Part shown: positions 788 to 1,561 of the stretch, piece after piece
Layout of the letters: every line of letters starts with the position of its first letter
Position numbering within the stretch: the stretch's first letter is position 1
IMG/VR virus record: IMGVR_UViG_2700989171_000008
Strand: one strand, 5' to 3'
DNA: 4,588 nucleotides
Source: a virus
Lineage: Duplodnaviria > Heunggongvirae > Uroviricota > Caudoviricetes
Notes under the pieces: model-generated
Database searches by the model: none
What the model was told of the DNA's origin: nothing
What the model saw: the letters and a program-made list of their open reading frames with translations, nothing else
Program-made: the position numbers and the translations under genes

Positions 788-1467
788 ATAACCAGTATTT
801 ACAGTTTGTGCGTGAGCAGCTCATTATCGCCACCGCTGATTTGAGTGGGGCAACAAAAGGTCAGCTTGAAGCCTGGCAAGAGAATGCCATGTTCGATACA
901 GGGCGTTACAGGCGTAAAAAAATCCGGTACCGCGATGAAGTGACTGGAAAAATGATAACGCGGGATAATCCACCAATCCCGGGAAAGCAATCGCTGGCGA
1001 AGGGGACGTCAATTCCTCTGGTCAGTCCGGTTGAGTTTTCGACATCATCGTGGCGGCGGGCTGTTCTGTCTCTTGAAGAGCACTATAAAGCCTGGTTGTT
1101 GTGGTGTTACAGCGGGAGTATTTGTTGGGAATATCAGATCGCGATAACACAGTGGGCGTGGAATGAATTTAATGCTCAATCCGGTACCAGAAAAATTGCA
1201 GGGAAAACGCAGGAACGCCTGAAAAAATTAATCTGGCTGGCGGCGCAGGCAGTAAAAGCAGAACTTTTTGGTGGGGAAGGTTATGAATACCAGGAGCTGG
1301 CATTACTGGCGGGAGTGACAACTAAAAACTGGTCCAAAACATTTACTCGTCACTGGGTTGCAATGAAACACATTTTTCACCGACTGGATAGTGAGGCTTT
1401 ATTGTTTGTAATGAGAACACGTTCAAAAAAAAGACGGCATTTTCAAAGCAAAGTGTTGCAAAAGTAG
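784..1467 (+). CDS. Late-gene antitermination protein Q (Phage_antitermQ / QuuQ-like), about 227 aa
   Basis: Position immediately after rusA and immediately before a strong promoter plus intrinsic terminator is the canonical Q-PR'-tR' arrangement. ATG at 784 with GGGGTG upstream, overlapping the rusA stop; the ORF track's 778 start is a GTG. Family assignment is by synteny and partial recall, not a strong motif match. Confidence 0.62.
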   Translation: MNNQYLQFVREQLIIATADLSGATKGQLEAWQENAMFDTGRYRRKKIRYRDEVTGKMITRDNPPIPGKQSLAKGTSIPLVSPVEFSTSSWRRAVLSLEEHYKAWLLWCYSGSICWEYQIAITQWAWNEFNAQSGTRKIAGKTQERLKKLIWLAAQAVKAELFGGEGYEYQELALLAGVTTKNWSKTFTRHWVAMKHIFHRLDSEALLFVMRTRSKKRRHFQSKVLQK

Positions 1468-1484
1468 ATTGAAAGGCATATATT
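1456..1484 (+). promoter_or_regulatory. PR'-like sigma70 late promoter (TTGCAA-N17-TATATT) overlapping the 3' end of Q
   Basis: -35 TTGCAA at 1456-1461, 17-bp spacer, -10 TATATT at 1479-1484; predicted start near 1491. Placement at the end of Q matches lambdoid PR'. Confidence 0.5.
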
Positions 1485-1537
1485 CATGCAAATCTGATAC
1501 TTTGCCGATTTTGTACGTGATGGCAAAAGCAAACAAA

Positions 1538-1561
1538 ACCCGCCCACAAGCGGGTTTTTTG
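1538..1561 (+). terminator. tR'-like intrinsic terminator
   Basis: GC stem CCCGC (1539-1543) / GCGGG (1550-1554), 6-nt loop CCACAA, then TTTTTT (1555-1560); A-run upstream can extend the stem. About 70 nt downstream of the predicted PR' start. Confidence 0.6.

Follow-up and report, generated by a model that had tools for sequence, protein, structure and literature searches.

A probable late-gene control module of the phage 82 type downstream of the Q gene in a lambdoid prophage

What is the function of the short region that lies between the gene for the antiterminator Q and a group of tRNA genes in a lambdoid prophage? The window, by which we mean the whole 4,588-nucleotide stretch of viral DNA that was analysed (IMG/VR record IMGVR_UViG_2700989171_000008), is the late-early junction of such a prophage, and the region in question occupies positions 1456-1561. 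A sequence-only reading had proposed that it contains a compact PR′/tR′ module that is the target of the adjacent Q protein. This is borne out by the membership of Q in the phage 82 family, by a pause element downstream of the promoter, and by the conservation of the unit behind Q genes. We conclude that the region is probably a late-gene control module of the phage 82 type, to which we assign a probability of about 85% on the basis of sequence comparison. The sequence elements themselves are seen directly, as are the preservation of the whole unit behind genes of the Q82 family and the fit to the published descriptors of the 82 PR′ promoter. The positions of the features are collected in Table 1.

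Table 1. Features of the window, and of related loci where a locus is named
Feature	Position	Strand	Basis or remark
DUF968/NinG-like gene	80-421		
RusA gene	422-787		
Q antiterminator gene, phage 82 family	784-1467	+	PF06323 match
Region under test, between Q and the tRNA genes	1456-1561		
PR′ -35 hexamer, TTGCAA	1456-1461	+	sequence and conservation in the family
17-bp promoter spacer, containing the Q stop codon; candidate Q-binding region	1462-1478	+	
PR′ -10 hexamer, TATATT	1479-1484	+	
Inferred transcription start, first A residues of AAATC	1490-1491	+	6-7 nt past the -10 hexamer
σ70-dependent pause element, extended -10-like TGATACTTT (1495-1503, +6 to +14) then GCC (1504-1506, +15 to +17)	1495-1506	+	
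5′ hairpin of the short RNA, UUUGCC...GGCAAA	1501-1527	+	MFE and centroid structure
Predicted promoter-proximal pause site, equivalent of 82 +25/+26	1513-1515	+	homology only
tR′ intrinsic terminator: A4, CCCGC/GCGGG stem, 6-nt loop, T6	1535-1560	+	
σ70 promoter-like TTGCAA-17-TATTAT, then GC-rich discriminator	1628-1656	+	promoter scan and comparison
Four tRNA genes	after 1456-1561		the first is tRNA-Ile, anticodon CAU, beginning at 1666
Holin gene, phage 21 type	2477	same as Q	PF04971; followed by an ORF without known function
Lysozyme gene	3600	same as Q	
Rz/Rz1	4130	same as Q	
IsrJ/IsrK matches in relatives	L087 1406-1479; L090 1406-1479; L091 1406-1482; L083 1411-1481		promoter-to-terminator interval after Q82-family genes

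The Q protein encoded in the window matches its Pfam family over the full length (E = 3.6e-91), while the same search gave no match to the Q families of lambda or phage 21. It is 74% identical to the Q protein of phage 82 over its whole length of 227 aa. It had been suggested that the Q-binding (qut) site be compared with those of phages 82 and 21; the first comparison is the right one, but that with phage 21 is inapplicable because the window Q has no match to PF06530, the family of Q21. A run of adenines at 1425-1432 has lost one nucleotide (CAAAAAAAAG in the window, CAAAACAAAAG in phage 82 and PPompW), so that the last 13 codons of Q are frameshifted and the protein ends in KKRRHFQSKVLQK in place of KQKA.F...AK.D. 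The reading frame terminates at a TAG codon (1465-1467) that lies within the promoter spacer. The identical Q allele of E. coli FDAARGOS_944 is labelled 'frameshifted' (i.e. a pseudogene) by NCBI PGAP, and the terminase gene of that strain is also frameshifted. The run is A7 in one relative (L011).

The promoter does overlap the Q stop codon as had been claimed, but the description of it as near-consensus was too generous, since the two hexamers match the consensus at 9 of 12 positions. There are nine sites of this quality in the window compared with 5.9 ± 2.2 in shuffled sequences, so that the PR′ hexamers by themselves do not exceed what chance would produce. Taken alone, the built-in scan for promoters and terminators likewise lends no support to the module. 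It might therefore be supposed that the hexamers arise by chance or as a by-product of the coding of Q, that the hairpin is the terminator of the early-right operon, and that late transcription starts elsewhere, for example at the promoter-like site at 1628-1656. The numbers of 9/12 sites (about six expected by chance in a window of equal size) agree with this, as do the overlap of the -35 hexamer and half of the spacer with Q codons specifying a conserved L-A-K-x-D/N tail, the existence of the second promoter-like site, and the symmetry of a hairpin (A4...T6) that could terminate transcription in either direction. Yet the composite TTGCAA-N16-18-TANNNT-N9-12-TGNTANNNT, i.e. the promoter together with the pause element, has a single occurrence in the window (1456-1503) and none in 200 shuffled sequences. 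This explanation is also opposed by the comparison with other loci described below, and we consider it very improbable.

We compared 73 Q82-family loci, taken from a phage collection (including phages 82 and 434 and phages of Salmonella, Klebsiella, Enterobacter and Cronobacter), from IMG/VR, and from one genome per species (61 loci, >40 species). The composite promoter and pause motif is found behind Q, at the same place relative to the stop codon, in 62 of the 73. The hosts include E. coli, Shigella, Salmonella, Klebsiella, Enterobacter, Citrobacter, Kluyvera and Cronobacter among others. The other 11 loci do not fit the strict pattern, most of them because of a single base (for example AG for TG, or TATATC for TATATT). 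In the 62 the -10 hexamer and TGnTAnnnT lie in non-coding DNA at a fixed spacing, contrary to what is expected of a by-product of the Q codons. Among 5426 complete E. coli genomes the module is present in 973 (~18%), and it is unannotated in the records that we examined.

The 65 distinct sequences were assembled into a profile, in which TTG, A-11, G+7, T+9, A+10 and T+14 are fixed by the search pattern and so are not evidence, and position -7 (T in 64 of 65) was restricted by the pattern to T or C. At the positions left free, the -35 region is conserved at C-32 (63/65), A-31 (64/65) and A-30 (59/65), the -10 region at T-12 (51/65), T-10 (55/65), A-9 (60/65) and T-8 (61/65), and the pause region at T+6 (60/65), A+8 (64/65), T+11 (64/65), C+17 (63/65) and T+25 (54/65). 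Past +17 conservation collapses.

The -35 motif TTGCAAAA overlaps the 3′ end of Q, and is identical in the window, phage 82 and phage 434. It is read as L-A-K in most copies and as L-Q-K in the window and a few others. Since it is kept in two reading frames, the constraint acts at least partly on the DNA, which again argues against a coding by-product. A separate explanation for the conservation of TTGCAA would be a CII-activated promoter of the paQ type on the minus strand at 1448-1461, generating an RNA antisense to Q. The sequence TTGC-N6-TTGC (TTGCAACACTTTGC) that fits the CII consensus is found once in the window, at exactly this position on that strand, and the annotation of phage 434 places a CII site and the paQ -35 at the equivalent position. 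Against that, one or more such sites occurred by chance in 58 of 200 shuffled sequences, the minus strand has no plausible -10 element, and the upstream GCAA half is missing from most family members even though these retain TTGCAAAA. We think such a promoter improbable, and it would in any case be an addition to the PR′ assignment and not a replacement for it.

Within the spacer the positions A1462, A1463, A1468, T1470, A1472 and A1473 are invariant or nearly so in the 65 distinct sequences, while their neighbours are variable. In most lineages, but not in the window, this conservation is confounded by the C-terminal codons of Q; the same positions are also kept in lineages where they fall past the Q stop codon, as would not be expected if they were merely coding. 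The complete set of conserved positions that have no explanation in contacts with σ70 is A-29, A-28, A-23, T-21, A-19, A-18, T-6, A+2, T+4 and A+8, though coding constraint and shared ancestry are confounding factors. In phage 82 the Q-binding element and the pause element together lie within -31 to +30 (PMC4914094). By comparison the binding element of the window would be bounded, rather than located, by about -31 to +5 (1459-1494), and the segment from -29 to -18 (window 1462-1473) is the best candidate for it. Two other candidates were rejected, i.e. a dyad GCAT...ATGC around the -10 hexamer and a repeat AAAG...AAAG in the spacer; both are too short, and neither is kept across the family.

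The 82 PR′ has a pause element of extended -10 type, a GCC 'discriminator' at +15 to +17 and an AT-rich stretch (PMC5001585), and transcription pauses at +25/+26, with U at +25 (PMC5001585). Taking A1490 of the window as +1 places GCC at +15 to +17 and T at +25, as published for 82 PR′ (PMC5001585); past -19 this match is to published position descriptors and not to an alignment. With this numbering the start region of the window reads TG (+6, +7), A, TACTTT (+9 to +14), GCC, GATTTTG and T at +25 (1514). The start is thus likely to be at A1490 or A1491. The pause hexamer TACTTT matches at 3 of 6 positions, with A2 and T6 retained.

The claim of an intrinsic terminator about 70 nt downstream of the promoter also stands, in the form of a hairpin followed by T6. 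The element comprises A4 (1535-1538), CCCGC (1539-1543), the loop CCACAA, GCGGG (1550-1554) and T6 (1555-1560), so that the stem consists of just five G-C pairs. The built-in scan lists this hairpin for the minus strand alone, since in stretching the stem through A/T pairs the scan uses up the T tract. A separate scan of the plus strand of the window found two sites with a hairpin and T tract; tR′ is the sole intergenic one, with ΔG of about -10 kcal/mol, and the other is weak and lies within an ORF. Among close E. coli relatives the substitutions in tR′ are found in the loop or the T tract and not in the stem. In the wider family a hairpin and T tract lie 55-120 nt (median 79) past the inferred start in 61 of the 65 distinct sequences, with stems that are unrelated in sequence. 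We note that the 5′ arm in E. coli ECMA0423 (L093) is CCCTC instead of CCCGC, a G to T change that breaks the stem; that lineage may have constitutive read-through, or may simply have decayed further.

From these elements we infer the start site, the pause, the binding of Q and the read-through, and the module could function as follows. RNA polymerase with σ70 would start at PR′, close to A1490. The σ70 would then re-bind the non-template strand at TGATACTTT, so that the complex scrunches and pauses after about 25 nt (~1514). Without Q, transcription would terminate at tR′ (hairpin 1539-1554), generating a constitutive RNA of about 70 nt. Once Q had accumulated it would bind the DNA within the interval defined above and engage the paused complex together with NusA. 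The Q-modified polymerase would be resistant to terminators, so that the lysis genes (holin, lysozyme and Rz/Rz1) and further late genes are transcribed.

It had further been claimed that everything downstream depends on Q. This is too strong, since the tRNA genes lie in a cassette with a promoter of its own at 1628-1656, and so are probably independent of Q. From -36 of that site through the tRNA the sequence is identical to that in the Stx2 phage Stx2a_F349, save for two substitutions in the discriminator. The Q protein of Stx2a_F349 is unrelated to that of the window and the sequences upstream of -36 are unrelated too, so that the homology begins exactly at the edge of the -35 element. Positions 1628-1665 and the tRNA genes thus look like a mobile tRNA cassette carrying its promoter. 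We considered this site as the true PR′ and rejected it, given that it travels with the tRNA cassette, even into a phage with an unrelated Q, that it would start transcription about 3 nt before the tRNA, and that it has no pause element. The same properties count against the alternative in which late transcription starts at this site.

The part of the window further downstream requires some caution. It contains runs of ten N at 1724-1733, 2248-2257 and 2766-2775 that do not preserve length, the first replacing 19 nt of PPompW. The two copies of a 218-bp 'repeat unit' (about 2040-2247 and 2258-2460) and a partial second copy of the holin gene (2776-2901) each adjoin an N-run, and the closest complete genome, that of E. 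coli FDAARGOS_944, has one 218-bp unit, between tRNA-Gly and the holin gene. Rather than true repeats, the duplications are probably products of scaffolding, in which overlapping contigs of similar prophages were joined.

The RNA expected from termination at tR′ merits consideration in its own right. The 71-nt RNA (1491-1561) is predicted to fold into two hairpins with a free energy of -20.2 kcal/mol (z = -2.9), and none of 200 shuffled sequences folds as well. The predicted fold has a 5′ hairpin, an A-rich linker, and the terminator hairpin with its U tail. Within the family the corresponding RNAs take either a form of 52-56 nt, in which the terminator lies right behind the pause region, or one of 70-120 nt, to which that of the window belongs. 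Most of the longer RNAs have a 5′ hairpin beginning at about +11 to +14, with at least five different arm sequences. The 5′ arm of the recurring hairpin overlaps the GCC/CGC that directly follows the pause element.

Comparison with Rfam aligns the window end to end with isrJ (23.0 bits, threshold 37) and isrK (22.5 bits, threshold 50) at 1487-1560, scores that are below the gathering thresholds for membership of RF01393 (IsrJ) and RF01394 (IsrK). The alignments begin at 1487/1488, coinciding with the predicted start near 1491, and their end coincides with that predicted near 1560. Relatives give much stronger matches at the equivalent position. Enterobacter phages ENT1 and CobraSix and Klebsiella phage ST11-VIM1phi8.2 have isrJ at 63-73 bits, 16 nt past the Q stop codon, and Salmonella phage SW-37 has isrK at 46 bits in the equivalent position after Q. 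IsrK is known to be transcribed from a promoter that lies downstream of antQ and is regulated by antitermination (PMC4825925; PMC7547250). It thus seems that the IsrJ family represents the leader RNA that Q82-type phages make from PR′. Since the IsrJ matches fall exactly at the PR′-tR′ position, many of the features annotated as 'IsrJ' in Enterobacteriaceae probably represent leader RNAs of this kind. The RNA of the window is a positional counterpart of IsrJ, IsrK, lambda 6S RNA and StxS, but by score it is not a member of the Rfam families. Catalogues of EHEC sRNAs (EcOnc, Pas) contain convergent sRNAs located further downstream, or lambda-type Q loci, and none that matches the window RNA.

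In Salmonella phage SW-37 (L083) a P1-type C4 antisense RNA (1508-1590, 62 bits) lies directly after IsrK. This suggests that the isrK-orf45-anrP cassette of the Gifsy-1 type is a module like P1 immI (c4-icd-ant) that has been inserted behind PR′. STnc100 (RF02076) is found downstream of tR′ in Klebsiella phages, at 1564-1759 in L091 and 1652-1838 in L085 (104 and 81 bits, threshold 47), and at 41 bits, i.e. under the threshold, in phage 434 (L001, 2773-2977). There is no match to STnc100 in the window.

Could the region then be mainly the gene for a regulatory RNA of about 70 nt, similar to IsrJ, IsrK or StxS, that is made constitutively in lysogens and acts on host or phage mRNAs, with the role as a target of Q being secondary or lost? 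The layout of the RNA is the usual one for an sRNA, the 5′ hairpin recurs in relatives with differing sequences, the matches to isrJ and isrK run end to end, and relatives have bona fide IsrJ members at the equivalent position. Moreover, StxS and IsrK show that RNAs from PR′ to tR′ can function (PMC4825925; PMC7547250), and the lesions in Q and the qut region discussed below would fit loss of the switch with retention of the RNA. However, the Rfam scores of the window fall well short of their thresholds, and the similarity to IsrJ is confined to the pause-element segment and a terminator of generic type, without a seed region. Across the family the RNA shows no conservation in its interior, and the short form found in about a quarter of the relatives lacks the 5′ hairpin. 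Such a primary role is possible but rather unlikely, and it is compatible with the late-control reading. A broader proposal would be that the PR′-to-tR′ leader RNAs of Q82-type prophages form one widespread sRNA family, of which IsrJ is the commonest form and the 71-nt RNA of the window a divergent member, with a functional hairpin at +12 and action in trans or in cis like StxS and IsrK. We regard this as speculative and on balance unlikely. If it were true, the RNA could outlast a weakened Q switch in decayed prophages.

The assignment of the region as a phage-82-type module leaves the question of the state of this particular copy. The alleles in its lineage form a stepwise series. In the ancestral allele, represented by 41 loci, the Q tail contains CAAAACAAAAG, the spacer is followed by TATATTT, and TGATATTTT is present. 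At two loci the A8 frameshift in the tail of Q is the only change; four others have also lost one T separating the -10 hexamer from the pause element, and six, including the window, combine both of these with TGATACTTT. The allele of the window is the most derived of the series. It has 10 and not 11 nt between the -10 hexamer and TG, a spacing confined to the lineage of the window among the loci that were examined. The T that 64 of 65 sequences have at -6 is missing, and C (C1500) replaces the T found at +11 in 64 of 65. With three lesions in Q and the qut region that are specific to its lineage, the switch may have lost part or all of its activity. Although the module is clearly recognisable, the present activity of the window copy is uncertain.

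By itself the locus matters little; the analysis identifies a previously unannotated 100-bp stretch as a switch of the phage 82 type. It does provide a signature for the annotation of late promoters of the Q82 type, TTGCAAAA-N15-TAnnnT-N11-TGATATnnT-nnC with a terminator within about 120 nt. The conserved positions not explained by σ70 also narrow the search for the Q82 binding element. This is relevant in that Q82 is the sole Q family that lacks a structure (PMC9388147).

The closest known system is that of phage 82, with which the window shares its family of Q and an identical -35 motif. Both have a pause element at +6 to +14, GCC at +15 to +17, T at +25 and a terminator shortly downstream. 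The window differs in having 1 bp less between the -10 hexamer and the pause element, a frameshifted Q tail, and a pause hexamer that is weaker than the near-consensus one described for phage 82. The late region also differs, with tRNA genes and a phage-21-type holin cassette downstream, unlike phage 82. The Q21/qut system of phage 21 is a functional analogue, with a Q protein of another Pfam family (PF06530 against PF06323).

The Q proteins of lambda (PF03589) and of the Stx phages belong to unrelated families, and the pause in lambda is at +16 compared with +25/+26 in phage 82 and, by prediction, in the window. The lambda 6S RNA is 194 nt in length. The lambda PR′-6S RNA-tR′ region and StxS share the same logic, i.e. 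a constitutive late promoter, a σ70-dependent pause, loading of Q and a short RNA that is terminated in lysogens (PMC7547250). The StxS RNA is longer, with 258 nt processed to 74 nt. IsrJ and IsrK have the same position and architecture as the window RNA, being RNAs of 70-80 nt that begin at the promoter just behind a gene of the Q82 family and end at the first terminator. They have the 5′ segment AAAUCUGAUA in common with it, while the interior of the window RNA is not related to theirs. The orf45-anrP cassette that lies downstream of IsrK and is under its control (PMC4825925) is missing from the window. Modules of this kind are already known; the region is a slightly decayed example of the well-studied switch by which phage 82 controls its late genes.
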